A DNA stretch of 64,000 nt from Heteronotia binoei. Its lineage: Eukaryota. Every line of letters begins with the position of its first letter. The stretch's first letter is position 1. Location: contig NC_083243.1 of assembly GCF_032191835.1 (NCBI RefSeq), forward strand, positions 44,950,001-45,014,000, written 5' to 3'. Below are positions 1 to 63,079 of the stretch, one piece after another. The position numbers and the translations under genes are program-made. A model generated the notes under the pieces. That model was given only the letters and a program-made list of their open reading frames with translations. It was not told where the DNA came from and ran no database searches.

Positions 1-1
1 G

Positions 2-97
2 TTGGCCCCAGAGGCAGACCCATGTCCGGCGGAAATGCCCGCGGAACTCTGGAGGCTTGGGAGAAGGAAGCCGGTAGGGCCATTCAGTTGGCGCTAG
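2..97 (+). CDS. C-terminal end of the RT/RNase H ORF (partial), overlapping the YR start
   Basis: Frame 2 reads LAPEADPCPAEMPAELWRLGRRKPVGPFSWR* (TAG 95-97). LAPEAD-P resembles the end of Ngaro RT-RH ORFs as I recall them, and the position directly before and overlapping YR fits. Confidence 0.6.
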   Translation: MAPEADPCPAEMPAELWRLGRRKPVGPFSWR

Positions 98-963
98 CCC
101 CTAGTACAAGGAGGGCCTATGCCAGGGCGACCGCTCAGTTTGGTGAATTCAGGAGTGCGGCTGCACTCCCGGATTGTTGGCCTATTCCGGTGGCGCACAT
201 CATGCAATTTTGCGTGCACCAAAAGGAAAGAGGCCTGGGGTTAAAAACCATAAGGGGACATCTGGCGGCATTGGCCTTTGACAGTAAGGCCCGCGGCCTC
301 CCGGAGTTCACAGGTGACTTTAGAGTTAAGAAGATGCTGGAGGGCTGGGCCCGGGAGAGGGTACGGCAGGTAGATGACAGACAGCCTATCTCCCCGTCCG
401 TCCTCAGTGGTTTGTTTGGGGGATGGCCCAGGGTTTGCTCCTCCCCGTTCGAGGCTGCATTGTTCCATGCTGCCTCGCTGTTGGCCTTCTTTGGGGCCCT
501 GCGCGTGAGTGAGCTGGTAGTGCAGTCAAGGGCTGACACTTCTGGGAGGGCGCTCCAATCCGGAGATGTAAAGATTACTAATAGCCAGCTAGTTCTGACG
601 ATTCGCCGGTCCAAGACTGATCAGAGACAGAGGGGGACTACCATCACGATCGGCATGTGTGCATCGCAGGAATTGTGTCCGGTCAGGGCTGTTCGTCGCT
701 ACGTGCAGCTCAGGGGTGAGGCCCGAGGTCCTTTTCTTAGGCACGATGATGGCTCCCCTCTTACCAAATATCAGTTCTGGTCGGTCACAAGCAAGGCCCT
801 AGTTCGCTTAGGTCTCGCTGGCGTCAAATTTGGGACGCATTCCTTCCGGATTGGGGCGGCCTCCACAGCTGCTTCTATGGGCTACACGCCATCTGCCATT
901 CGGCATATTGGCCGATGGCGGTCGGCGGCTTATAAGTCTTATGTGCGCCCCCTGGTCACCTAG
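22..963 (+). CDS. Tyrosine recombinase (DIRS/Ngaro YR), intact, 313 aa
   Basis: Catalytic motifs in order: GALRVSEL (R), RRSKTDQ (K), HSFRIG (HxxR), GRWRS (H/W), AYKSYVRP (Y). N-terminal LAPSTRRAY SAM-like region. No stops. Confidence 0.95.
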   Translation: MSGGNARGTLEAWEKEAGRAIQLALAPSTRRAYARATAQFGEFRSAAALPDCWPIPVAHIMQFCVHQKERGLGLKTIRGHLAALAFDSKARGLPEFTGDFRVKKMLEGWARERVRQVDDRQPISPSVLSGLFGGWPRVCSSPFEAALFHAASLLAFFGALRVSELVVQSRADTSGRALQSGDVKITNSQLVLTIRRSKTDQRQRGTTITIGMCASQELCPVRAVRRYVQLRGEARGPFLRHDDGSPLTKYQFWSVTSKALVRLGLAGVKFGTHSFRIGAASTAASMGYTPSAIRHIGRWRSAAYKSYVRPLVT

Positions 964-1010
964 TAGGTAGGTGGGGGGGAGGGGTCTGTTGTTTGCATTG
1001 TGTATGTTAT

Positions 1011-1035
1011 GCTGACAGTTGTTTGTTCTTTCAGG
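1011..1035 (+). promoter_or_regulatory. Candidate branch point and 3' splice site upstream of the hydrolase ORF
   Basis: GCTGAC (branch A at 1015), T-rich tract TTGTTTGTTCTTT, then CAG|G with AG at 1033-1034. Confidence 0.65.
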
Positions 1036-1630
1036 TGCTGTGGCTCGTGGTGAGAGAAGGCGGGTTCTCATCTGCGGGCACAGCATGGTTTTCTGGGCGG
1101 CCCACTTCGCCAGACGGTCTCCTGTGGGCACCCAGCTTGGCCTCAGTGCGTGGGCTACTGTGGAATGGCTGGGTCGTCGGGGACTGCGCTGGCCCGGGAT
1201 CATGCCACTGTTGTTCAGGGAGCGTAAGGCGTTACCTCCACACATCCTGGTTGTTCACTTGGGAGGGAACGACTTGGGGTTGCTGCGTGGGAAGGCCCTT
1301 TCCCAGCAGGCTTTGGCCGACCTCCGCGAAATTCGGCGCAGGTGGCCGGGGGTCCTACTAGTGTGGTCGGCAATTTTGCCGCGCAGGGTCTGGAGGTACG
1401 CCATTTCGCCAGGTGGAATCGAACGGGCTAGACGTAAGGCCAACAGGGCCATCCAGAAGGCCATGGAGGGGGGATTGGGAATTTTCCTCCCGCATCCGGC
1501 CATACGGGTCAATCAAGCTGACCTGTATCGGCCGGATGGTGTGCATTTATCTGATTCGGGTAACCGGGCCTTTTTGGATGAAATTCGGCAGGGGGTGCGG
1601 TTGGCTCTGGGCCACCCGTTGGGGCGCTAA
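1019..1630 (+). CDS. SGNH/GDSL-family hydrolase (esterase), accessory ORF of the Ngaro element; probable exon starts at 1035
   Basis: Block I GHS (S22), block II G55 (GRRGLRW), block III HLGGND (N84), block V DGVH (D173/H176). In-frame TGA at 1013-1015. The first ATG (M23) lies after the catalytic Ser. Confidence 0.88.
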   Translation: MFVLSGAVARGERRRVLICGHSMVFWAAHFARRSPVGTQLGLSAWATVEWLGRRGLRWPGIMPLLFRERKALPPHILVVHLGGNDLGLLRGKALSQQALADLREIRRRWPGVLLVWSAILPRRVWRYAISPGGIERARRKANRAIQKAMEGGLGIFLPHPAIRVNQADLYRPDGVHLSDSGNRAFLDEIRQGVRLALGHPLGR

Positions 1631-1659
1631 TGCCTAAGCAGAGGCTTGGCATTGGCGGT

Positions 1660-2064
1660 GGCTGGATGAGGTTTGGCCACGGGGTTTCCCAGGGGAGCAC
1701 CTATGGCCTAGCACCGGTGGTGCGGTGGTCTGCAGGAACCGTAGATGGGCTAAACGGCTCAGTACGGTGATGCAGATCACAGGGAGCCTCACCTGGGTGG
1801 ATCTTTCCATGGGGGATTGATGCCAGCCCGGTGGGTGATGGCTGGAGGCCTGGCCGCTCAGTTACAACCCGAATAAGGCGGGTTTGTGCTGGGGGCAGGG
1901 TGGCTCGCCCTTTCGGCAAGGCGGGGTCCAGGTGTTGACCCCAGGGCTTGTCTGGTTTGGTTTTACCCCCCCTGCCAGTTACAGTTGTTAATTCTTAAAT
2001 AAAGCGGCCCGGTTTATAACCCAACACTTGTGTCTGCCTCTTCTTTCCGACTGCGGGTGCAAGG
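1660..2064 (+). repeat. Split direct repeat B1 (405 bp) with AATAAA at 1998-2003
   Basis: Identical by visual alignment to 2410-2814 (offset 750). Confidence 0.95.
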
Positions 2065-2409
2065 TTCGGCCCCTTCCCAGCCGAGCCAGCGTGCTGGCTA
2101 TTAGGCTGGGGGCCGTTTTTGCGCCTGCGGAAGGAGGGAGGGGCAGAAACATCACCCGACATACGGGTGTCTGCCCAGGCGCGAGCTGGGGCTATATAAG
2201 CCCCGGCTCTCGCCCTCCTGCGCAGTTTGGATTTGGCTCTCTGCCCGCCCTCCCTTCCCATTGGCAGTACAGGCTTACGCTGGTCGCCTTTTTAGGGGCC
2301 AGGTAGGAATTTTTTCACTCCCACACAATTGGCGTCAGTGGGGGTGTTTTTCGCCTACCTTGTACTGCCTAGTAGGTTAGGTTTGGTTAATGGTATTAGT
2401 TTGGTCGCA
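2065..2409 (+). promoter_or_regulatory. Split direct repeat A2 (promoter-bearing unit); TATA box TATATAAG at 2193-2200
   Basis: 345-bp CpG-rich unit between the two B copies, with a TATA box and a donor-like CAG|GTAGGA at 2302/2303. The matching A1 copy is expected upstream of the window and is not visible. Confidence 0.7.
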
Positions 2410-2814
2410 GGCTGGATGAGGTTTGGCCACGGGGTTTCCCAGGGGAGCACCTATGGCCTAGCACCGGTGGTGCGGTGGTCTGCAGGAACCGTAGATGGGC
2501 TAAACGGCTCAGTACGGTGATGCAGATCACAGGGAGCCTCACCTGGGTGGATCTTTCCATGGGGGATTGATGCCAGCCCGGTGGGTGATGGCTGGAGGCC
2601 TGGCCGCTCAGTTACAACCCGAATAAGGCGGGTTTGTGCTGGGGGCAGGGTGGCTCGCCCTTTCGGCAAGGCGGGGTCCAGGTGTTGACCCCAGGGCTTG
2701 TCTGGTTTGGTTTTACCCCCCCTGCCAGTTACAGTTGTTAATTCTTAAATAAAGCGGCCCGGTTTATAACCCAACACTTGTGTCTGCCTCTTCTTTCCGA
2801 CTGCGGGTGCAAGG
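2410..2814 (+). repeat. Split direct repeat B2 (405 bp), right end of the element; AATAAA at 2748-2753
   Basis: Identical to B1, followed by host sequence. Confidence 0.95.
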
Positions 2815-4548
2815 GCAAATATCACCATACTTGAGCCATTCCAGGTCAGAAAAATGGCACTGAGGAGACTTAAGCAACCTCTCCCAAGGACTTGGTATTG
2901 GTCTGAATCAGGAACCCATGAACCTGAGAACTGAATTCCCAGATGAAAACTCCCAGCTCATCAGTAATTGTCATTGTTAAAGCTGATATAAAATAACATA
3001 CAGGTTTTTGAAATTTGACAAGGGGGCATCAAATTAACTTTTTGGATGTTAATCCCCCCCCCTCGACTTTCCTTTTGAAAATCAACTTGGATAAATTTAT
3101 TTTTTTATAAATGTGAAAGCAAATATTCTTGCTTGACTTAATAGAGTTACATTTTGATTTTGTACTCTTAAATCTGAACACATTTGCAGTTAGAACACAG
3201 TCAATTAAAAGAGTATAAGTTTTTAGCAGAATTTAAGATATAAGAATGCAACTGAATTTTTTTTTCTGATCAACATTAATGTCTGCTGTGTGATATCCTA
3301 TAATGATCAAACTAGTTTCAGTTTTGGGCCTGCATATAGGCAAATGTATGGATTTCTCATTTGGCTTCCAAGTTACAGTAGATAAATAAATAATCCACAT
3401 GCAAAATATGTGTTTGCCTTATTAACACTGACATTTTTTTTATCAAATGCATTTGACAAGAGAAATATGAGGCAAGAATGATGGGAAAACTGACTTATTT
3501 TACACCAAGAATAAAGGATTAAGTGCCCATTTCCTTTCTTTTGTTCCAGACAATCTCATTAAATCCAGGGAGGGCTGGGTTCTTGAAAGATGGAAAGATT
3601 TCACAGAAAAGGTTAAGAGCAAATGGATGATAAGATTTGTACCTCTTTGGAAATGTATTTTGAAAACCCATTAAATTTTGGTAGGATCATCCATCCAGGC
3701 TGAACTGGTGCTGCTTTCATCTCACTGTTTAATCTTTCCAATTGCTGGCTGAGTGGCTACATTAAAAAAAAAAAAAAGTACTGGCATGGTGCAGGGAATG
3801 TTCTTTCTGTTATTTTGCCAGAAAAGGCACCACTCAGCAGCACCTCTAAGAACCACACAATTCCATTGTGACCTGCCTCTTGGGTAGAAGATTATTTTCT
3901 ATCTTTTGCCCCAGTGGGAGATGTAGGTTAGAGCGTAACTTCACTTTACAAGCTCCCACAGCAGCCCAAAATATCCCCTGAATTTCTGTTCCTGGGAGAT
4001 GGGGAACCCTCAGGAATAGATTTGGGGAATCAGGGATTCAGGGCTAATGGCAGCATACTCTGAGGAACAGTTGCTAGGGCCCAGACCTCTGTCAGGGCCC
4101 CTGTGGTAGATTTGCATGCTGTATCCTCACCTGCTTGCTTGCAAGCAGTCCACCACCCATGCTCCCAGCTGTACACAATGCCCAGCATAGCAAAAAGCTC
4201 CTGGTGGTGCAGGTATTTGTGAACATGGGCAATGAGATGGCTCATAAGGTGGAGGGGGAATGATGTATAGGAGCATGAGTTGGTGGGTGCAAAGGGAGGC
4301 ATGAGCAGAAGAGGGGAAGGATACCCTGTGTACTCTCTGCCCAGGGCCTGACAAAATTGGGAATTGGCTCTGCGGGGGTCTCCTGCAGGATATGCAAAAA
4401 TCACCCCCCCTCTTTTGCCCATGGAAATTCTAGTTGGGATCCATGACTAACTTTTCTAGTAGTGCCACTGTGTGTGTGTGGGGGGGGTGTCTATACACCC
4501 ACACACACCCACACCACTGTGGCACTATTGGAAGACTTAATCTTGGAT

Positions 4549-4705
4549 CAGGGGTGGAATTCTAGCAGGAGCTTCTTTTTTATTTTATTTTATTGTATTA
4601 TATTTATATCCCACCCTCCCCTTTTTGTAAGCTCTTGGAGGATTGGCTACATCAGAGGTGTGCGGCTTAATATGCAAAGGAGCTCCTGCTAGAATTCCAC
4701 CCCTG
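4549..4705. mobile_element. hAT-like non-autonomous element (rearranged)
   Basis: Inverted ends CAGGGGTGGAATTCTAGCAGGAGCT ... AGCTCCTGCTAGAATTCCACCCCTG. Internal part related to 42391-42553. TSD not clean. Confidence 0.6.
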
Positions 4706-5552
4706 GTTGAATGTGTGTGCATAACATTTCTAATGTGCTAAATGAATTTATTACCAATGGCAAGCCACGTGTCTCTGCTTTCTCTGAAGACACACTGGTC
4801 ACGTCTGTTGTGCCATTGATATTCCCACTCCAGCACACAGGGATGTTACATCAACTCCCGCTCATGTCAGTAAACTCCTGAGTGCAGCATGCAAGATCAT
4901 AGGGGGGAAATTAAAATAAAGGTTAATGTCATTTTTTTATGGTTGACTGGCACTTTAAAAGTCCAAGGAGGAAAAGATGGGCTCTAAAGTCGGATATATT
5001 TATTAGGCGGTGTGTCATCAGAGAGTCCCAATCACAGCTGTCAAGGTTGAGCTCATCATCAGAGAAGGAGGATTACGAGGGACTGGAAAGCCAGCAGCAC
5101 TCAAGACTGCAGCAGCTCATTTCTCTGGCTCAAGCTGAGACCATCAAAGCTCGAAGGAAGGGAATGTGCAAGAAAGCTAGGGAATATATTGCATTTGCAT
5201 AGTCCTGGAACTCATCTGCATGAATCCACCCATTTCGTAATACATGCCTGGTATTGCCAAGGAAAACATTGCATTCTTTCTTATTTTATTTATTATGGAT
5301 GTACCATTTTAATACACAAAGTTTAGGCAATTGTATCTCCCCTCCCATCTCTCATTGGCTGCATGTTGTTCCATTTTGATTTACTGATGGACATTTTAAA
5401 AGTTACTTCTGGAAGTAACTGGTTATAACATAATATTCCTGCTTCTGCTAGGCTCAATCTGTGCAAATAGTCTAGGGTGAAATACTTCTTTGGTTGCACA
5501 TAATGTTTGTCAGAATGAAGCCAGAAGTGGATCAACAATCTTTTCTTCTACG

Positions 5553-5830: not shown

Positions 5831-8800
5831 AGGTCATTGTCAATCCTGCTTTAGTAAAGAGTTGCCTCAAAGTAAAGTCTCTTACTACTTACAGGTTTTT
5901 CCTTCTGTATATTAAAAAATTGCATTGGGTACAAAACCAAACCAGAAATGCTTTGACTTTGTCATCTGTCCATCCCCCCACTCAAGTGCATTAACTCTGT
6001 TACAGGTTTAAAAAAACACCATGAATTTCCTCCCAGAAAACACTATTCCAACAATTGTAATTGTTCTGGTGAGATACAGGCTTTTTCTGCATACACAACT
6101 TACTTCTGATTTTCACTGAAGTTGAATCAGTTTGGGTTTACTTCAAATACTGTGCCTGCACCCTGCATTCCCCCCCCCTCCAATTTCTATTTAGCATTGC
6201 AGAGTATATATTCAGCATACCAATGAGAAACCTTGGGTAGTGTAGTGGGGTTGGTCTCTCCTGATTGCTTTGTTTTGCACTGGGCATGTCTTTTGAAGTA
6301 GGAGATTCTTCCAGCTGAATTTACTGTAGGATCACCATTAGTATCCCCCCCTTCATCAGTAGTGGAGGAATTTAATATTAATCTGGGATGGCTGGAGGGC
6401 AAAAAAAAAATATTGACAGGGACTGTTTTTAGGAGATGCTGACCACTTGGCCAGAGAGGCAATGGGGAGGCTGCTGTGCAACCACTTGGCAGAGGAGGTT
6501 CCTGGCGGGGGGAGGTGGAGACGTCAGTGCTTTGTAGCCTGAGTTTCCCACCATAGTTATTTGAAATTGAGATGACAAAAAGGGAAGACCAGATGTTGAG
6601 ATGGATGAGACTTTAAAAAAAAAAACCCAGGCTGCTGCTGCTGCCCCAGAGCATCTTCCACTTTTTATCCTCATGTTTGAAATATTTGCAGTCCAAGTCA
6701 ATGTAAAAGATTTTTTTCAAAAACAAAATTACCCTGAAGAACAATCAAACAAACAACCTTACTGTTAATAGCACTGTATCTTAACCAACCAAACTAACTG
6801 GCTATTCCTGCAAACAAGTTAGACAATGGCAATTACTTTCCTAGCCTCCTATTTCAAAAGACATGCCTAGTGCAAAACTGACCAATAAGGAGAGACCAAC
6901 TGGCCTGTGAAGAGAAGGGAGGAGGAAAAGCCTGATGAAATATGTATACTTTTAAAGGCTTGGAAGTGAACTAAAAGGATAAATAGTCACAAAATGACTC
7001 TGAGAAACCCCAGGGGGAAAAAAACAGACTGAAAGCAGGCGCAGAGTTGAAGGGGGTGGGGAAGGAATCAGTGCAGAAAAAATGCAGTTGGAATGTGCAG
7101 GGGACTGTGATGCACAGCGAAAGTGAAGGAAATGAAGGTGCAGAAAGGGCCTTATCAATCAATTAACATTTTATTTATATCCCGCCCTCTCCGTCGAAGC
7201 AGGCTCAGGGCGGCTAACAACATCAAATACAATAGATTATACAATAAATATTTAAAAACAGTATCTAGCTTTAAAACAGTCTATCTTTTCTGATAACTGA
7301 TGACAACTCCTTGTAAGCTGGAGAAGATCTGCCTCACCACAGAGATATATGATCTCGGAGCAGAAAGATATATTAGACCAATAGCATTTTTTTTAAAGTA
7401 ATTATGAATGCAATTATAAATACAATCATTCATTGACTTTTCTGAAAGTGACTTTTCAGGCTCTGGGTACTTGGGTATTGTAAAACACAATGTCTTCTGG
7501 CACTGCAAAAAAATAATAATGGTGGTACATTTTTTCTGCCCCCAAATACACTGAGATTTGGCTTGGGGTAGAAATACCCCACTTCTGCCACCACCACTGT
7601 TGATAACAGGCTAGTTAAGATTTGCAACAGCTGAAGAACCCCACATTTTAGGGCAAAATGGCTTACTGATTTTAAACTGCAAAAACAAAAATTGAATAAA
7701 GAGAAATTTAAGCCCTGTTAACCTTAACAGGGGATGTGTAGCACATGAGATAGCCTGCTTTATCATGGGGTTTGTCTTGTGTCACCCTTTATAGTCAGCT
7801 TCTGTTTCAGCTTGTATAGAGAGCTAGCTGTGCATACAGAAAGCAGCCCAGGTGCTCTCTCTAAAACCCTCTGCATGGCTGCAGGGGATTCCGGGCCTTT
7901 TCTCACTTCGACCTAGGAGGTATTGAACTAGACTACAAGCCAAGAAAAGGTGGAAGACTTATGTTTCCAATGTTCTGCCAACAAAACCAATATAAGAAAG
8001 CTCAAAATTAATTAGTACAAAGTGTGCCAGTAATACATTTCTATGTATATCCAATCATGTTATTAACCAAGTCTGCATATATGCATGCATACATGCATAG
8101 GTATATATAAATTCATAGAGGCAAAGAGCTGATGCATAAAAAGATTATTGATTTGTTTTCATTTTTGGATGTTGCCTTTGTAATAAATTGGTGGTCTGTG
8201 ATTTGAAATGATGAAACGACCAAAGCATGCTGGTTTGCAAGGGAATTGATACTTTTTGATTATTGCCAGCTGGGCCATGCTAGTTTTGAATTTTAATAAT
8301 ATACAGTAATTGGCTCACATTGCAAAAAGTGTTATTTGTTTTTTTTTGGGGGGGGGGATTCCTGTCCACTTTACCTACAAACATTTAACTAAGGTTGAAT
8401 AGGGTAGGTGAGATTTTTGAGGATTCTGTTTTTTCATCAGCATTCCTATTAGGATTAGCACATTCTCTTAAACACCACCAGGAAGAAGGAAAGTCAATGC
8501 TTTAAAAAGGAAAGCAATCATCAGATGAATGTAATAAACTAGTTCACTGTCAGGGGAGTGATAAAAAATGATATGGTGCTGCTTTGCCTCAGAAATTCTG
8601 TCTCCCCCATCCAGGTAGATTTTGGAATCATTCTAAAACACTGTGGAACTTTCCAAATGTACCTCAAAATGGAGCTAAGGAATTCCAAGGGTTGGTGCAT
8701 ATCTTTATTAGCTGATGCAGTATATGATGGGGAAAGTGTGGGTGGTGTTTTTAACCAACAAACCAGGATCTGTTGGGTGATTCCCCTCATCATATTAATG

Positions 8801-24071: not shown

Positions 24072-25608
24072 CTCTCTCGGCTTGGCTTCGCGAACGAAGA
24101 TTTAAGAAGGGTGCAATAGTCCACGTTTGCTGCAGGCTCGCTGGTGGCTGACAAGACCAATGTGGGACAGGCAGGTCCGGCCACAGCGGCTGCAGGGAAA
24201 AGTCTGATTTAGGGTTGGTCCTGTAGCAGTGCCATTCTTCCTCAATCTCCTTTTGTCCTCAAGACCAGCTATGCGTGCGTTCTCAAAGGAAGAGACAGCC
24301 TGGTGGATGGTGTGCCTCCATGCTTTGCGATCTGAGGCTAGGTCAGACCACTGGTGATGGTTGATGTGACAGGTGCTAAGGGATTTCTTCAAGGAGTCCT
24401 TGTACCTCTTCTTCGGTGCCCCTCTATTTCGATGACCGGTGGAGAGTTCGCCATACAAGGCAATCTTGGGAAGGCGGTGGTTTTCCATCCTAGAAACATG
24501 CCCTGCCCAGCGCAGCTGCGTCTTCAACAGCAGTGCCTCAATGCTGGTAACCTCCGCCCGCTTGAGGACTTCAGTGTTGGTCACAAAGTCACTCCAGTGG
24601 ATGTTGAGGATGGTGCGAAGGCAGCGCTGATGAAAGCGCTCAAGGAGTCGCAGGTGATGACGGTATAAAACCCACGATTCGGAGCCGTAGATGAGGGTTG
24701 TCATCACAACCGCTTTGTAAACATTGATCTTTGTGCCTTTTTTCAGATGCTTGTTGCTCCACACTCTTTTGTGCAGTCGGCCAAATGCACGGTTTGCCTT
24801 TGCCAGCCTGTTGTCAATCTCCTTGTCGATCTTGGCATCTGAGGAGATGATGCACCCCAGGTAGCTGAACTGCTGGACTGTCTTCAGAACTGATTCACCC
24901 ACAGTGATGCAGGGGGGGTGATAATCTTCCTGGGGTGCAGGCTGGTGGAGAACTTCTGTCTTCTTCAGACTAACTTCTAGGCCGAATAGCTTGGCAGCCT
25001 CTGCAAAGCAGGACGTCATATGCTGCAGAGCTGATACCGAGTGGGAGACGAGTGCAGCATCATCAGCAAACAGTAGCTCTCGGATGAGTTTTTCCATTGT
25101 CTTGGAGTGTGCCTTTAGTCGCCTCAGGTTGAACAGGCTGCCATCGGTGCGATAGCGGATGTATACACCGTCGTCATCATCTAGATCTACTGCGGCTCTT
25201 TGAAGCATCATGCTAAAGAAGATCGTAAAGAGAGTTGGCGCGAGAACGCAGCCTTGCTTTACACCTGTGCCTATTGGGAAGCGCTCTGAGAGGTCGTTGC
25301 AGTGTCTGACTTGGCCTCGCTGGTCTTCGTGTAGCTGGATGATCATGCTGAGGAACCTTGGGGGACATCCTAAACGTTCCAAGATTTGCCACAGGCCTTT
25401 CCTGCTAACGGTATCGAAAGCTTTGGTAAGGTCGACAAAAGTCACATACAGAGCCTTGTTCTGTTCCCTGCATTTCTCTTGGAGCTGCCTGAGAACAAAT
25501 ACCATGTCGGTGGTGCTCCTGTTAGCTCTGAAGCCGCACTGGCTCTCTGGGAGGAGTTCTTCTGCAATGGCGGGCACCAGTCTGTTCAGGAGTATTCTGG
25601 CAAGGTAG
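24072..25608 (-). mobile_element. 5'-truncated RTE-clade LINE, young
   Basis: 11-bp TSD ATTTCCAATCT (24061-24071, 25609-25619), (GA)n tail, uninterrupted RT frame. Confidence 0.95.
24102..25607 (-). CDS. RTE ORF: reverse transcriptase plus C-terminal C2H2-like knuckle (5'-truncated; upstream Met of the ORF track is flanking DNA)
   Basis: PESQCGFR, FVDLTKAFDTV, GVKQGCVLAP, LLFADD, FSYLG, CSRCGRTCLSHIGLVSHQRAC. Confidence 0.92.
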   Translation of the reverse strand, partial: YLARILLNRLVPAIAEELLPESQCGFRANRSTTDMVFVLRQLQEKCREQNKALYVTFVDLTKAFDTVSRKGLWQILERLGCPPRFLSMIIQLHEDQRGQVRHCNDLSERFPIGTGVKQGCVLAPTLFTIFFSMMLQRAAVDLDDDDGVYIRYRTDGSLFNLRRLKAHSKTMEKLIRELLFADDAALVSHSVSALQHMTSCFAEAAKLFGLEVSLKKTEVLHQPAPQEDYHPPCITVGESVLKTVQQFSYLGCIISSDAKIDKEIDNRLAKANRAFGRLHKRVWSNKHLKKGTKINVYKAVVMTTLIYGSESWVLYRHHLRLLERFHQRCLRTILNIHWSDFVTNTEVLKRAEVTSIEALLLKTQLRWAGHVSRMENHRLPKIALYGELSTGHRNRGAPKKRYKDSLKKSLSTCHINHHQWSDLASDRKAWRHTIHQAVSSFENARIAGLEDKRRLRKNGTATGPTLNQTFPCSRCGRTCLSHIGLVSHQRACSKRGLLHPS

Positions 25609-27916
25609 ATTTCCAATCTACCATCTAGAAAATGAAAGTAAATAACAATGAGCTGTGAAAACATCTGGCTTCCCCCAGATTTTATAATACGTATGGGTAT
25701 TTGCCATGTGGTGGCTACATAATGTGTATAAATGATATAAAGTTCATACAACCACACGAGCACACTTGACTTGTGCCCACTTAAACATATTAAACACATG
25801 AAGCTGCCTGATATTGAGTCAGACAGCTGTCAAGATCAGTATTGTCTACTCTGCCTATCACCCTATCCTTTTAAATAAAGATGCTCAAGAGTGAACCTGA
25901 GACCTTCTGCATGTAAAACAGATACTCCCCCATGGCCCTCCCCAGCATAAGCACAGTGTTACCATCACACCAGTACAGGCCTATAGTCTACATTATGTAT
26001 CACAGCATTTGGAATGCTGCTTTGCAAAATTACATTTCTACAATGTGATGGGGATAGAGTTTATGAGAATGTAGTTTGTACACATGCAGCCATTTTTGTC
26101 CAATGAAGCACATATCAATTGCCTCAGCACCTCCAAATAAAGACTCAAGACAACAACATGGGTTTAACTAGCTTACCAATGGATACCTTTCTTGGAAACA
26201 TTCACTCATTTCAATCAGCCTTGTTTATGTCATATAAAAATGAAATGTGCTGACAGGTGCCAAGGTTCCCCTTCCATGATGAGCCACAAGGCCTCTACCG
26301 GGCTTGAAAGATGCTGTTCAAGGCCTGAGGTGCTCCTTCCAGACCCACCCTGCTGTTCCAGATATGTTCTCCATCATACCCTATGTCTCAGAGCCCTTGA
26401 CAACCGTTCTATCTATTGTGAGCAACCAAACCTATTCTTGCCAAACTTGCTATGGCCTAACCAGTTCCCCCTTCTAGTTATGTTTTGAAGCAGGCAAAAA
26501 AGGTCCCCCATCAGACAATCAGGGGAACCCTCGAAATTTCTGCATGGCCTTGAAACCATCAGCAGTAACCAGCTAATCCTACAATATCCTGTGGGTCAGC
26601 AGATAGTGGCAAAAGTCTGACTGGAAGACTATAAGGTGTTTATAAAGACCCTCAGTAGATCTCCACAGAGGCTGTAAGCTTTCAACCCCACCAAGGCTTT
26701 CTTATGCACCATTTGAAAGAAGTGGCTAGGGTGAACAGATCTATGGCTTTAATGCCATGAGTGCTGCTTCCAAAAGGCTTTATGAGTGCCATTTCCAAAA
26801 TGGTGCCAAAAAAAAAAAGGAGCCCATTGTCATTTATGCCTGAGGAGAAGAGAGGGCACACTTGGCCACAGGCAGCAACATAGTGAGCATTACAAAATAG
26901 TGTTATATTTTGGTTTCAGCTGAGCAAAATCACAGCTGCCATTTGTAACTGCCAACTGACCTTCTGAATCTCTTAGTAGAGAAATTCATTACAAGATTTC
27001 GTTATTTATTAATGCAGAAAGTGAATCCACCCCTTCTCCAGAAAAATTGGCTTTTTTTTTCTTTGCACCACTTCATCCTGTTGTTTTCCAGAATAGGAAA
27101 TTTATTGGAGGTTATTTGAACATGAGGTTGAAAAGAAAAGCAGTGTCATGGTTGGGTGCTTGAACTGGGTGCAAAGGCCCTGCACAGAATCTTGAAAATG
27201 TAACCTTTGAATAGACCATTGCTTAAGAAGCTTTCTGATTGTTGCTGAATAATGCTAGCAATGATTACGTTGGTGCAAAATGCATCCCAGATAATCTGTT
27301 TTTAATGTCCAAATAAATAGAGAGCTTTGATTTTTTGTTATTGTTTTTAATCATAAATCCAATCTGCCTAGAGGAAAAGCACTTCTGAAGCCCAACTTCC
27401 AATATTTTTTCTCTTAAATTCTCATCTTACTTGGCTACATTTTATCCAGAAGGCAATGATTAGCATCAGCTTTTTAAAGCGTATCTCACATCACGTCCCA
27501 ATCCTTTATAATCCTTTTCTCCAGTTAGTTTTAAGTGAACACAAGTCAGCATATACAGGGTTTTTTTGCAAGTGCCAGTGGCACTAAATAAAATAAAATG
27601 TTCAGTGGTGCATGAAGGTTACATGATCAGAATATTTGGTTTGCAAATAATGATGACCTGTTCCAATGCCCTTTAACGGGGGCACTATGGTGCCACTACA
27701 AGCGAAATAATGTGGAGCTTAACAAAAACATTATTTTGATGTGGCACAGGGTCTGAAGGACTGCCTCCAGCCTTATTGATTTGTTCTGAGAGCCATGCAT
27801 GGTGCCTCTCTGATGAGACAGACCAAAGCCCAAATAAGAGCCCATGTGTTGTAGAGTTGTCGACCTCCAAGGTGGTAGCTGGTGATATCCCATTATTACA
27901 ACTGATTTCTGGGTGA

Positions 27917-37409: not shown

Positions 37410-38566
37410 TACACTGATTTCAGTAAGGTTTTTGATAAGGTTCCACATACTATCCTTGTTGACAAGTTGGTAAAATGTGGTTTGGATCTTGTTACCATTA
37501 GATGGATCTGTAACTGGTTGACAGATTGCACCCAAAGAGTGCTTGTGAATGGTTCCTCATCCTCTTGGAGAGGAGTGACAAGTGGAGTGCCTCAAGGATC
37601 TGTCCTGGGACCTGTTTTGTTCAACATCTTTATCAATGATTTGGATGAAGGAATAGAGAGAATGCTTATTACATTTGCCAATGATACTAAATTGGGAGGG
37701 GTTGCAAATACAGTAAAAGAGAGAAACAGGATAAGGGATGACCCTGACAGACTGGAACTGGGCTAAAATGAATTTTAACAGGGATAAATGTAAAGTTCTG
37801 CATTTAGGTAGGAAAAATCCCATGCATAGTTATAGGGTGGGGGAGGCTTGTCTTAGCAGTGGTATGTGCAAAAAGGATCTAGGGGTCTTAGTGCATCATA
37901 CACTAAACATGAGTCAACAATGTCATGTGGTGGCTAAAAAGGCAAATGCAATTTTGGGCTGTATCAACAGAAGTATAGTGTCCAGATCATGTGATGTGAT
38001 GATATCACTTTACTCTGCTTTAGTAAGACCTCACTTGGAGTATTGTGTTCAGTTTTGGGCACTACATTTTAAGAAGGATATAGACAAGCTGGATCAGGTC
38101 CAGAGGAGGGTGACGAAGATGGTGAGAGGTCTGGAGGCCAAGTCCTCTGAGGAAAGATTGAAGGAGCTGGGGATGTTTAGCCTGGAGAGGAGGCAGCTGA
38201 GAGGTGATATGATCACCATCTTCGAGTACTTGAAGGGCTGTCATCTAGAGGATGGTGTGGGATTGTTTTCTGTGTCCCCAGAAGCTAGGACCAGAACCAA
38301 TGTGTTGAAATTAAATCAAAAGAGTTTCTGGCTCAACATTAGGAAGAACGTCCTGACCATTAGAGCGATTCCTCAGTGGAACAGGCTTCCTCGGGAAGTG
38401 GTGGGCTCTCCTTCTTTGGAGGTTTTTAAACAGAGGCTAGATAGCCATCTGACAGCAATGAAGATCCTGTGAATTTGGGGTAGGTATTTGTGAGTTTCCT
38501 GCATTGTGCAGGGGGTTGGACTAGATGACCCTAGAGGTCCCTTTCAACTCTATGATTCTATGATTC
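37410..38566 (+). mobile_element. 5'-truncated CR1 LINE
   Basis: SGVPQGSVLGPVLFNIFINDLD, FANDTKLGG, RPHLEYCVQFW; 3' tail TTCTATGATTCTATGATTC; frameshifted. Confidence 0.93.
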
Positions 38567-58205: not shown

Positions 58206-59036
58206 TCATAGAATCATAGAGTGGGAAGGGATCTTCAGGGTCATCTAGTCCAACCCTTTACACAATGCAGGAAATTCACAAATACCTCCTTCTAACTTCA
58301 CAGGATCCGCATTGCTGTCAGATAGCCATCCAGCCTCTGTCTAAAAACCTCCAAAGAAGAACCCACCACCTCCCAAGGAAGCCTGTTCCACTGAGGAACC
58401 ACTCTAACAGCCAGGAAGTTCTTCCTAATATTGAGCCGGAAACTCTTTTGATTTGATTTCAACCTGTTGATTCTGGTGCTACCTTCTGCGGCCACAGAAA
58501 ATAATTCCACACCATCGTCTATAGGACAGCACTTGAAGATGGTGATCATATCACCTCTCAGCCACCTCCTCTCCAGGCTAAACATGTCCAACTCCTTCAG
58601 CTTTTTGTCATAGGACTTGGTCTCTAGACCCCTCATCATCTTTATTGCCCTCCTCTGGACCCGTTCCAGCTTGTCTATAAACTTCTTAAAATGTGGTGCC
58701 CAAAACTGGACACAGTACTCCATGTGAGGTCTTACCAGAGCAGAGTAAAGCGATACCATCACTTCACATGATCTGGACACTATACTTCTGTTGTTACAGC
58801 CCAATATTGCATTAGCCACTGCATCACACTGTTGACTCATGTTCACCGTATGGTCCACTAAAACCCCTAGATCTTTTTCGCACATACTAATGTCCAGACA
58901 AGTCTCCCCTATCTTATAACTATGCATGGGAATTTTCTTACCTAAATGCAGAACTTTACATTTATCCCTGTTAACATTCATTTTATTGGTTTCAGCCCAG
59001 TTTTCCAGCCTGTCAAGATCATCCTGGATCCTATTT
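58206..59036 (-). mobile_element. CR1 LINE, 3' piece
   Basis: DKCKVLHLG, RPHMEYCVQFW; tail ...TCTATGATTCTATGAG. Confidence 0.92.
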
Positions 59037-62000
59037 TTTATTTATTTTAGTAAATTTCTATTCTGCCCATTCCCCATAGGGCTCAGGGTGGAGTACAACA
59101 TATAATAAAACAATAAAATACAATAGAAACATTTTAAAACAGACAACTCAACAGCACTCAGATTACCATGACATCACATATTGCCCAGCCTAGCCATCTC
59201 ACATCAGGATATCTCATAGGAATGGCAGTTTTTATTCCAGTTCCTAGCACAAATGATAGTGCTGACTGGGAAGACCAACCAGATCAAGAATAAACACCTG
59301 CAGCTTCAGCTAAAAACCTGGTGGAACAGCTCCATTTTATAGGCCCTACGGAAGGCTAATAAGCCAGGTAGGGTCCGAATCTCAATAGGCTGGGGCCAGG
59401 ACTGAAAAACCCCTGGCCCTAGTTGAGGTGAGGTGGGCGTCTCTTGGGCCGGGGATGGCCAACAGATGTTGGGAGGTCAAATGTAACAACCTCCTGGGTA
59501 TATATGGAAAGAGACGGTCCTGCAGATATGTTGGTCCCAGGCCGCGTAAGGCTTTAAATGTTAGCACTAGAACCTTGAAGTGGATCTGGTACTCAATGGG
59601 CAGCTAGTGCAGACTGCAGAGCGCCGGCCAAACGCCCACCCGTAAAGGTGATGCAGTCAGCAGGTGAGCCGCCGCACTCTGCACCCACTGCGGTTTCCGG
59701 ATCAGTCTCAAGGGTAAGCCAGCGTAGAGCGAGTTACAGTAGTCTAGTCTGGAAGTGACCATTGCATGGATCACTATAGCCAGGTCCTGGGGGGATAGAT
59801 ATGGTTCTAGCTGCCTGATCTGCCAAAGATAACAAAAGGCAGACCTGGCAACCATCATGATCTGGGCCTCCATGGAAAGTGAGGCATCCAAGGTCACTCC
59901 CAAGCTCCTCACCTTTTGGGTTGGCAGCAATGTGGCACCTTCCAAAGCTGGAAGCTTAATGCCCATACCCACCCCACCCCAACTCAGGTACAGAACCTCC
60001 ATCTTAGCTGGATTCAGCTTCAGCCAGCTCTGTTGTAACCACCTAGCCAAGGCTCCCAATGCCTTGGACAACTGGTCAGGGGCGGTGACTGGCCAGCCAC
60101 TCATCAATAGATAGAGCTGGGTGGCAAACCAGTCCAAAACCTTGGGCAATCTGGGCAAGGGGGCGCATATAGATGTGAAATAATATTGGCAAGAGAATGG
60201 CTCCCTGCGGCACTCCACATATAAGTGGATGCCGCAAGGAAGTCTGCTCGCCAAGTACCATGCTTTGTCCCCGTCCCCGGAGAAAGGAGGAAAACTATTG
60301 TAGGGCCACCCCCCCCCCTGAACTCCAGCAATGGTGAGGCAGTGGGTCATAAGGTCATAATCGACCATGTCAAATGCTGCTGACAGATCAAGAAGTATCA
60401 GCAGCGCTGACCCACCTTGATCCAGATGCCATCTTGTGAGAGCGACTAGGACATTCTCCGCCCCATGGCCCGGGCGAAAGCCAGACTGGAATGGGTCCAA
60501 GGTGGATGTCTCATACAGGAAAACAGGCAACTGCTCCACCACCACTTTCTCAACTACCTTAGCCAGAAGCGGTAAATTCAAAACTCGGCGGTAGTTGGCC
60601 AAGACCCCAGGGACTAATGATGGTTTTTCAAAAGTGGATGAACCACTGCCTCCTTCAATTTCTCTGGGAAGGTCCCTGTTGAAAGGGACAAGTTGACAAT
60701 ATCACCCAGAGAATCCCTGATACCATCCCAACTGGCTTTCACCAGCCAGGATGGACAGGGATCCAGGGGGCAAGTGGTAGGCTTCACTGCAGCCAGGATC
60801 CTGTCCACATCCTCCGATAAGAGCCTGCTGAAGCAATCTAATATAGGACCAGAAGATGGCCAAGGGACTTCCAGCTCGGATACTGTATCAATCCTGGCAG
60901 GTAGGTCCTGGCAGAGAGTCAGGTTTTTATCCGTGAAATATGTTGCAAAAGCCTCAGAGCCAATATCCAATTCTCTACCATTTTGATTGCCTGATGGCAA
61001 GACTGTTAATGATGAAATTACTCTAAAAAGTTGGGCTTGGCGTGACTTCGCAGACTCTATGCATAGAACTCCTTCTTAGCGGACTTCATAGCCCCATTAT
61101 AGACCTTCATAAATGCTCTATAACGGGTGGCCAATGGTAGCTCTCCAGATGTTTTTGCCTACAACTCCCATCAGCCCCAGCCAGCATGGCCAATGACTGG
61201 GGCTGATGGAAGTTGTAGGCAAAAACATCTGGAGAGCTACTGTTGGTCACCCCTGCTCTATAAGAGGTTCTTGACTCTTCATCACAAGCACATCGCCACA
61301 CTCACTCCAGCCATATAAGTTGCCGTTTCATCCTCAGCAGCTCCAGGGCATCGGGGAGCGATGTCATCGATGGCGGTGGAGAACCAGGAGTACCAGTCCT
61401 CCACTAACTCATTCAATGACCCGCCAGGGGGGCATCGAATCCCACAGGGTCCCCTGAAACTGCTGTGGGTCCATTTGCCTCCACAGGCAAGCATAAATCC
61501 GCTCACTGCCTAAACGGGAGAGAAGTTTCAGGTCTAACCAGGCTTTCAGGGCATAATGATCTGACCATGAAACCGGTTCCGCTGTCACCAGATCTGGTAA
61601 TATACCTGCCCCAAAGATCAAATCCAGCGTGTGATTGGCCTGATGCATAGGAGCTGATACAAATTGGCTGAGTCCTAGTGTCTCCATGGACAACACCAGG
61701 TCCTGTGCCTGCTGAGATGCTGCGTCATCAACATGGACATTGAAATCCCACAGAACTAATAACCTGGGGAAGTCCAATGTCCAGGTGGACACAGCATCCA
61801 GCAGGGCAGGCAGGCTTTCTGGTGGTGCAGTAGGCAGTCGGTATACCACGTAGATTGCCAAACTCTCCTCAGCTTCCCACACTAGGCCGACACACTCAAT
61901 GCCAGCAATGTTTGGGGAGGAAGCGCCCTGAAAGAAAAAGAATCCCGGATAAACACAGCAACTCCCCCCCCCCCCCCCCGCCCATTTGTCCAAGACTGGA

Positions 62001-63079
62001 GGACAGAGAACCTGAGTGGGATAAGCTGATCTAAGGCATCAGTGTCAACTTTCCACACCCAGGTCTTGGTCATACATGCCAGGTCCACCTGCTGCTCCTT
62101 GAGAAAATCTTGCAGAGTAGCGATCTTATTATTGATGGACCTGGCATTAATCAACACCAGTGTCAGAGATGGGATCTTCCTAGCCCCACAACCAACATGC
62201 CTCAGGATGGGACATAGGTGGGAAAGGGTCCGAGCATTTCCATATCTCTGGCCCCTTCCTTGTCTTCGCACTCTATGCCCACAACCATACCTTCCTTGCC
62301 CCTCAATGACCAGTATCCCCGACCCTAACATGGCCTCCCCAGTGTAGTGCTATCAGGCCAGGCAATGACCCTGCTAACATTTACTGATGGGCCAAAATGT
62401 AGACCTTCTATACCTCTGCCCACTTCCCTCCTATACCCACTCCCCACCGACCCCTGACAATCACAATCTACCCTTCTCACTCTCCCAACAAATTCAGTGC
62501 ACTAGCTATCAAAAAACACATTACAATCTATACTTAAAAACCTAATTTGATACCATTAATATGTACAATAATTAATCAGTTTCCACAGCCAAATTTCCCT
62601 AGCTATAATCTATTTTATCAGTTAACTAACTGACCACTAAAAATTCCAATTTAGTCAATTAATAATGATAAACTCTAACACAATCAATAAATAATCACAA
62701 TCTGTAGAACTAACAATAACTTACATTAATGGTTACAAAAATACAATTCATTAGCATAGATAAAACTAACATCTTGCTACTATGAGGTAGATAGTTATGA
62801 GTACCAATTATCAATCACTAGGTGTTAAGTGCTAAATCTAAAGTGCTGTGTGCTGATGAAATTTAATAATTAAAGGCGGTCATAACAGTCCCAGGAACAT
62901 AAAGGACTTCTACATTGGTCATAAAAACAGTTCACAGCAAGAATCTCCCCAACCAATCTCATCTTCTCTTCTTTGATGTTTAAAGTTGTAATGTTAGCCC
63001 TCTTCCAAAACAGACCAATAGACTTTAAATCCTTTTGCAGGAGTGACCAAAGGAGAAGGAGCAGAATACAATTATAGTG
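59037..63079 (-). mobile_element. L2 LINE (~4 kb) inserted into CR1; decayed ORF2 (APE endonuclease and RT) starting ~62331
   Basis: IEGQGRYG, VLINARSINNK, DLACMTKTW, LVLWDFNVH, PTTCPLDPCPSWL, NYRRVLNLPLLAKVVEKVV, DPFQSGFRPGHG, LLDLSAAFDMVD, RLDYCNSLY; A-rich L2 tail at ~59040; TSD TATTT. Confidence 0.85.
61114..61255. mobile_element. Small palindromic hAT MITE nested in L2
   Basis: Perfect 8-bp TSD CTCTATAA (61106-61113, 61256-61263). Confidence 0.9.

Follow-up and report, generated by a model that had tools for sequence, protein, structure and literature searches.

A startless SGNH hydrolase in a gecko Ngaro retrotransposon as the likely 3' exon of a spliced gag-leader message

Introduction

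The DNA analysed here (hereafter, the window) is a stretch of 64,000 nucleotides from Heteronotia binoei (assembly GCF_032191835.1, contig NC_083243.1, positions 44,950,001 to 45,014,000 of the forward strand). Its first 2814 bases belong to a Ngaro retrotransposon of the gecko type, an element with a tyrosine recombinase (YR), and make up its 3' end, in which the YR is followed by a hydrolase of the SGNH type. This hydrolase has no start codon of its own ahead of its catalytic serine: very probably, it is an esterase made from a spliced message that begins with a leader encoded by gag. It is also quite probable that the YR is made by splicing onto the same leader. As a whole, the data are likely best explained by a young Ngaro element whose gag leader is spliced to both the esterase and the YR, with an esterase that acts on membranes. 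The part of the element described is its 3' end; the A1 repeat, gag and nearly all of the reverse transcriptase/RNase H (RT/RH) region lie outside the window.

The probable hydrolase exon and its putative splice acceptor

The hydrolase frame extends from stop to stop over positions 1016-1630 of the forward strand and matches Pfam Lipase_GDSL_2 (E 1.1e-11). There is no ATG upstream of the catalytic Ser codon (1082-1084), and the first Met (ATG at 1085) is the residue directly after this Ser. A sequence resembling a 3' splice site, in phase 1, occupies positions 1012-1034 of the same strand and consists of (i) a CTGAC branch motif (1012-1016); (ii) a T-rich tract; and (iii) a CAG (1032-1034). 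The first codons of the 1016-1630 frame are, in other words, branch point and pyrimidine tract and not protein, and the frame is likely a 3' exon (1035-1630) that starts at the phase-1 acceptor (1033-1034), not a stand-alone gene. An earlier reading of the stretch, made from its letters (the sequence-only reading), had described a 203-residue open reading frame (ORF) with a full S-G-N-D/H set. The set stands (S23, G56, N85, D174 and H177 in stop-to-stop numbering, each one higher than the S22, G55, N84, D173 and H176 originally given), but the stand-alone ORF does not, as it lacks an ATG before the Ser and starts within splice-acceptor sequence.

Among 169 AG sites, the one at 1032-1034 is the only one in which a YAG coincides with a branch motif and with 11 or more pyrimidines out of 16, a rule defined only after the site had been seen. 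A stricter first filter (no AG within 20 nt) returned no site over the element, because an AG lies directly behind the branch motif. Identity to 20 Eublepharis models amounts to 6/120 in the six residues before the acceptor and 64/120 in the six residues after it, and Gly stands at the junction in 19 of these models. Furthermore, diverged copies in two RNA-library runs keep the pyrimidine tract and a YAG followed across the junction by GTGCTG, while the sequence of the tract varies; the share of words found in these runs was 0.05-0.06, and their contigs come from 80-99% relatives and are silent on level and strand. Contig joints from these libraries whose middles were unread were not used.

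Distant loci

A metagenome scan yielded 33 distant loci (27-39% identity), four of which carry gag, YR and SGNH in this order. Block I of the hydrolase could be located in 23 of them, namely 21 unspliced loci and two joined ones (L018 and L026); the phase test left out L012, L021, L024 and L028-L034, in which the match does not cover block I in a usable frame. The best-scoring YAG upstream of the SGNH domain is in phase 1 in 19 of the 21 unspliced loci (15/17 after merging near copies, p 4.5e-6), versus 4/21, 8/21, 2/16 and 2/9 in the shifted controls. From the acceptor base onward, the two joined copies are 91-95% identical to the unspliced loci L014, L015 and L017, and they carry an open Arg-rich leader where these three have the pyrimidine tract. 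Both have early stops, differing 3' flanks and no YR; in view of the stops and the flanks, they resemble insertions derived from a spliced message, in a distant family.

Some other traits of these loci deserve mention. L018 (to 2371), L026 (to 1707) and L014 (to 1642) have a common 3' end at an AATAAA-like motif. In the joined copies neither a poly(A) tail nor a terminal repeat was detected, an A-type repeat was looked for and none was found, and the leader holds 93-nt tandem repeats which differ in number. L006 is a contig that carries both gag (126-782) and SGNH (2502-3041) but has no YR match in the interval, and is possibly an internally deleted derivative. In L023, about 1 kb separates the YR (2365-3297) from the SGNH (4267-4833), far more than in the other loci, and this gap may hold an extra ORF or an insertion. 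A weak match of 23 residues from viral contigs (L001) was not used.

A shared gag leader in lizard gene models

The SGNH search returned 64 matches, many of them RefSeq models of 320-360 residues. Models that consist of a leader plus SGNH come from Eublepharis, Rhineura, Anolis, Elgaria and Hemicordylus, often from several loci per genome. The leader comprises a basic stretch, an acidic patch and two heptad-like segments, and its profile also matches YR proteins of 449-494 residues and gag proteins, including a 549-residue call on a 3.8-kb ENA contig. The 110 stored proteins include 50 with leader and SGNH, five with leader and YR, three with leader and gag, one with leader, YR and SGNH, and one with the leader only, counts that are biased by retrieval and are not frequencies. 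A prediction of the leader as a homodimer (score 0.05, alignment unused) was counted neither for nor against.

P0035 and P0101, two isoforms annotated at a single Hemicordylus locus, are identical over 123/123 residues and then continue as SGNH or as YR. At the locus LOC128347973, XP_053159346 is a leader plus SGNH model and isoform X1 a leader plus YR model. In matched models from Hemicordylus, Elgaria and Anolis (pairs picked by hand), the junction lies 14 residues before the GHS in 6/6, which is also the spacing in the window, and 39 residues before the conserved YR Pro in 5/5. The 11 junction residues are without exception G, D or E, residues with codons that start in G, as a phase-1 donor ending in G would require. 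The gag forms continue with G-K or G-S past the junction, which is compatible with a G/GT donor.

On the other hand, every lizard fusion seen is a predicted model, and many other models of these loci are chimeric. The fusions could be gene-prediction artefacts copied between annotations, with the hydrolase as a passenger, but hardly any credence is given to this explanation, since the phase conservation, the joined copies and the synonymous excess given below derive from nucleotide data and not from annotation.

As side observations, five very long predicted proteins (P0111-P0115) contain four to seven matched stretches, six SGNH copies being confirmed in P0111, and are probably models that chain tandem elements via the same acceptor. 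Dozens of lizard genes annotated as "uncharacterized", of which some bear the label PAF acetylhydrolase in UniRef, appear to be Ngaro splice products.

The predicted recombinase acceptor

When applied to the window, the 39-residue spacing puts the codon at the YR junction at nt -17, where it immediately follows the Q of the RNase H motif S-R-x-Q. Judging from this position, the YR is likely a second exon, and its acceptor is predicted some 17 nt ahead of base 1. At S-R-x-Q, six of seven distant loci have a YAG in phase 1 and the seventh has a CAG two codons later; in addition, the Ser codon of the motif is TCN in 7/7.

Selection on the coding regions

Among the differences listed for the best-supported 29 coding rows, 14 of 15 in the SGNH domain are synonymous, versus an expectation of about 26% (pN/pS about 0.03), as are 11 of 14 in the YR, with the same expectation (pN/pS about 0.09). 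In these rows, a synonymous excess is present in both hydrolase and YR, and the hydrolase appears to be under purifying selection. In the 64 matches, where aligned, the catalytic residues are kept as follows: S in 49/49, G in 61/62, N in 62/63, D in 55/55 and H in 54/55. Only 82 of 130 new representatives fitted the three strict motif patterns together, so some distant models may have lost a motif. The hydrolase family comprises 3711 representatives at E values up to 0.001 and 735 at 1e-30.

Points against splicing and alternative products

Several observations weigh against the splicing proposed here. For the window's own family no spliced junction was found, and in the two RNA-library runs the loose ends shown have an unspliced look. 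The gag donor and the YR acceptor of this copy are outside the window, and the joined copies L018 and L026 belong to a distant family from which no unspliced gag was recovered. As for the lizard fusions, they are RefSeq predictions in which transcript support is not visible, and P0020, P0033, P0095, P0099 and P0105 join YR or gag pieces to SGNH instead. Beyond the 29 rows, 590 further ones stand outside the synonymous counts. Regarding the YR, the Q of S-R-x-Q may be kept through RNase H constraint, which explains the codon choice less well, and the spacing of 39 is present in two of five distant loci, is 40 in one and was not found by pattern in two. Finally, an in-frame Met precedes the Ser in 10 of the 21 distant unspliced loci.

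This last observation, together with the unspliced look of the contigs displayed for the RNA runs, would suit a fourth ORF that stands alone and is read from the unspliced RNA through reinitiation, a non-AUG start or read-through. So would a TTG at 1019 and four contig-level gene calls that begin at the Met after the Ser, and the hydrolase is drawn in this way in current descriptions. Nevertheless, initiation at the first ATG loses the nucleophile, an in-frame TGA (1013) and a change of frame separate the YR from the hydrolase, and neither the phase-1 acceptors in 19/21 loci nor the two joined copies are in keeping with such an ORF, which is thus considered highly unlikely.

Alternatively, the acceptor could be real and the product a recombinase-esterase fusion, or a three-exon form using a donor inside the YR. 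P0020, P0095, P0099 and P0105 join YR pieces to SGNH, and donor-like GT motifs occur at 143, 284, 505 and 716. But donors at 143-716 would cut the catalytic end of the YR, the joined copies have no YR, and the leader plus SGNH of about 320-360 residues is the common form in five lizard genera, all of which makes this alternative very improbable. Splicing of the gag leader directly to the esterase exon is the reading retained in what follows.

Structure and possible function of the esterase

By its residues, the hydrolase is catalytically complete. Its structure model (predicted local distance difference test, pLDDT, 92.6) shows SGNH blocks I, II, III and V, with S, G, N and D-x-x-H, on a flavodoxin-like fold, and this predicted fold matches platelet-activating factor acetylhydrolase (PAF-AH) and 4C1B, the esterase of ZfL2-1 ORF1p, with which the sequence-only reading had called for a structural comparison. 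Carbohydrate and peptidoglycan esterases are also among the fold matches. Single-sequence PDB matches to the designed Cake and Scone proteins were rejected as repeat artefacts.

The link with ZfL2-1 is borne out by sequence, 4C1B being the best PDB match of the family profile (E 2e-8). Two ZfL2-1 residues, H191 and S228, align with the window hydrolase and are kept in 63/63 and 59/62 matches, respectively; according to the profile alignment to 4C1B, these transposon-type residues are encoded in the SGNH exon at 1256-1258 (His) and 1367-1369 (Ser), on the forward strand. In ZfL2-1, both are transposon-specific and required for activity, and the esterase combines slow activity, binding of anionic lipids and an upstream dimerising coiled coil, in the parts of the report consulted (PMC3905857). 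ZfL2-1 ORF1p and the window esterase share the SGNH set, H191/S228 and a very basic domain (isoelectric point 11.9 in the window); the leader-esterase also shares with ZfL2-1 ORF1p the preceding heptad repeats, a basic motif and a variable linker. Identity between the two esterases is 23%. They differ in that the ZfL2-1 fusion is a single ORF of a non-LTR element, whereas the window element is of the YR type, would form the fusion by splicing and would also retain a full Gag as a protein of its own. In the same parts of the ZfL2-1 report, DIRS elements are not mentioned (PMC3905857).

The scheme proposed involves one phase-1 donor in gag and two alternative acceptors, i.e. the CAG of the RNase H S-R-x-Q motif or the site after the YR. 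Three products would be obtained: (i) Gag, from the unspliced RNA, which would also be the genome; (ii) leader-YR, by joining the leader to the CAG of S-R-x-Q, just upstream of the window; and (iii) leader-esterase, by joining the first 125-170 gag codons to the acceptor at 1033-1034. With their common basic, two-heptad N-terminus, Gag, YR and esterase are predicted to gather in a single ribonucleoprotein particle. The esterase domain, which is very basic, would bind anionic phospholipids, as its isoelectric point suggests, and slowly hydrolyse acyl esters, as ZfL2-1 ORF1p does, and may help particles to assemble or to be transported at membranes of the germ line.

By analogy, then, we infer a spliced esterase with a ZfL2-1-like design and a membrane role, although that role, taken by itself, is somewhat doubtful. 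If splicing proceeds as proposed, the esterase could instead act on a non-lipid host target (by deacylating a defence protein, a glycan or an RNA mark) and serve in counter-defence. SGNH substrates are broad, carbohydrate and peptidoglycan esterases appear among the fold matches, and the basic leader, which resembles a nuclear localisation signal, could send the esterase to the nucleus. In contrast, the ZfL2-1 esterase is described as a slow enzyme that binds anionic lipids and lacks deacetylase activity on histone peptides (PMC3905857), and a non-lipid target is regarded as unlikely.

In retroviruses and gypsy elements, env is the last ORF, and its spliced message omits pol. The last ORF of the window element would likewise be expressed from a spliced message lacking pol, and in terms of expression the "env-like" position suggested for the hydrolase fits. 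As a protein, it does not appear env-like: the leader is long and coding, the fused N-termini of the models have both basic and acidic character and, by eye, no evident signal peptide, membrane anchor or fusion domain, and the modelled domain is a soluble SGNH fold. The integration enzyme, moreover, is apparently spliced too.

Layout, classification and age of the element

From 5' to 3', the element presents an RNase H tail, YR, SGNH hydrolase, B1, A2 and B2, all on the forward strand, and window positions 1-2814 are rich in GC and CpG relative to their lizard-like flanks. The C-terminal tail of the RT/RH ORF (2-97, frame 2, reading LAPEADP...LW) was recognised by its likeness to the RH tails of P0110 and of loci L010, L022 and L027; it overlaps the YR and stops at 97, with no methyltransferase after it. 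The YR (1-963, frame 1, Pfam PF00589/PF02899) has its 5' end open, outside the window. Its Phage_integrase match (E 8.9e-5) is below the curated cut-off, and the full catalytic set with which it had been credited is present (R168, K205, H280, R283, W306 and Y314).

Over the hydrolase stop and just before B1, an RNA hairpin is predicted by folding (1625-1657; -21.5 kcal/mol, z -4.06), a stretch picked by eye for which 0/200 shuffles fold as well; folding at the B1/A2 and A2/B2 junctions is weak only (z -0.95 and -1.65). The split direct repeats B1 (1660-2064) and B2 (2410-2814, the 3' end of the element) flank 345 nt (2065-2409) with a TATA-like motif at 2193, presumed to be the A2 repeat from its place between them. 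The same AATAAA occurs in both B repeats (1998 and 2748), so that a full-length transcript has to read through the first of them; which of the two is used might depend on the hairpin or on splicing.

A YR that overlaps the end of RT/RH, B1-A2-B2 repeats, a hydrolase after the YR and no methyltransferase make the element Ngaro-like. A DIRS-1-like element was rejected, since the repeats are direct, not inverted, and no methyltransferase follows the RH; a PAT-like element was also rejected, since split direct repeats are present but the RH frame ends without a methylase. In a tree of 27 hydrolase domains, from a gecko-rich sample, the window sequence groups with Eublepharis and Gekko rows (support 95/93), in agreement with the squamate Ngaro family proposed before.

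B1 and B2 are identical over 405/405 bases, as first noticed in the sequence-only reading, which places the upper bound (95%) of their divergence at 0.74%. According to the model in the parts of PMC6681497 consulted, such repeats are near-identical at the time of insertion. The ratio of observed to expected CpG is 0.67-0.73 in the ORFs versus 0.21 in the remaining window, which fits a young copy, as had been claimed. Identity of B1 and B2 could also be obtained through assembly collapse or gene conversion. That the copy is intact was not confirmed: A1, gag and nearly all of RT/RH are beyond the window, and the hydrolase ends in another frame than its relatives. Its C-terminus reads HPLGR before the stop, while 14 of the 20 best relatives end in WG(A/V)xA, an ending that is present here in a neighbouring frame. 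The shifted ending, located beyond the last helix of the structure model, may have arisen in this copy, be a variant of the family or stem from a sequencing error.

Comparison with known elements

Hydrolase-bearing Ngaro elements are known already, and the splicing strategy is apparently unpublished. In Xenopus tropicalis, DIRS-53_XT and DIRS-54_XT are described as Ngaro-like with a hydrolase ORF and, like the window element, they have RT/RH, YR, SGNH and A1...B1-A2-B2 repeats with identical copies (PMC9210276). Their four ORFs overlap, and splicing and introns give 0 matches in the main text of that paper (PMC9210276). In the window element, unlike in these, YR and SGNH do not overlap, the SGNH is startless, both are apparent 3' exons, and the host is a squamate.

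DIRS-1-like and PAT-like elements have Gag, RT/RH and YR in common with the window element, and PAT-like ones also the split direct repeats; both carry a methylase, and DIRS elements have inverted repeats and an internal complementary region, neither of which is seen in the window element (passages in PMC7192593; PMC6681497). The function of the Ngaro hydrolase is called unproven or unknown in the passages available (PMC9210276; PMC7192593; PMC6681497), where the translation route of downstream Ngaro ORFs is not stated (PMC9210276; PMC6681497). No published account of gag-leader splicing to Ngaro YR or SGNH was found in the literature, judged mainly from titles and abstract openings, with keyword passages from PMC9210276, PMC7192593, PMC6681497, PMC9341512, PMC4157794 and PMC4495291.

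Other features of the window

A 575-residue open reverse transcriptase frame at 24102-25829, on the reverse strand, resembles what we take to be a long interspersed element (LINE) of the RTE/BovB type. Remnants similar to CR1 and L2 lie at 37735-38472, 58298-59041 and 59604-62349. Inverted-repeat pairs resembling miniature inverted-repeat transposable elements, of 30 nt (97%) and 55 nt (89%), are found at 4549-4705 and 6250-6900.

Significance

If one leader is spliced to both exons, the real proteins of these elements have about 450-490 (YR) and 320-360 (esterase) residues, and are not the bare ORFs. This would change which protein to express, tag or mutate, and would provide two exact targets for reverse transcription PCR. 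In a broader and improbable version of the idea, Gag, recombinase and esterase would be splice isoforms of one gag leader in Ngaro elements from lizards to invertebrates, and the leader-esterase would rebuild the ZfL2-1 ORF1p design as a matrix-like membrane module that loads particles into vesicles, opening an envelope-free route from cell to cell, e.g. from soma to germ line.

Splicing of the leader to both exons would also connect YR retrotransposons with LINE esterases, by architecture as well as by domain, and it suggests that retroelement particles have repeatedly needed a module that acts on lipids. It would, moreover, explain many multi-copy "uncharacterized" lizard models about 340 residues long as products of transposon splicing.

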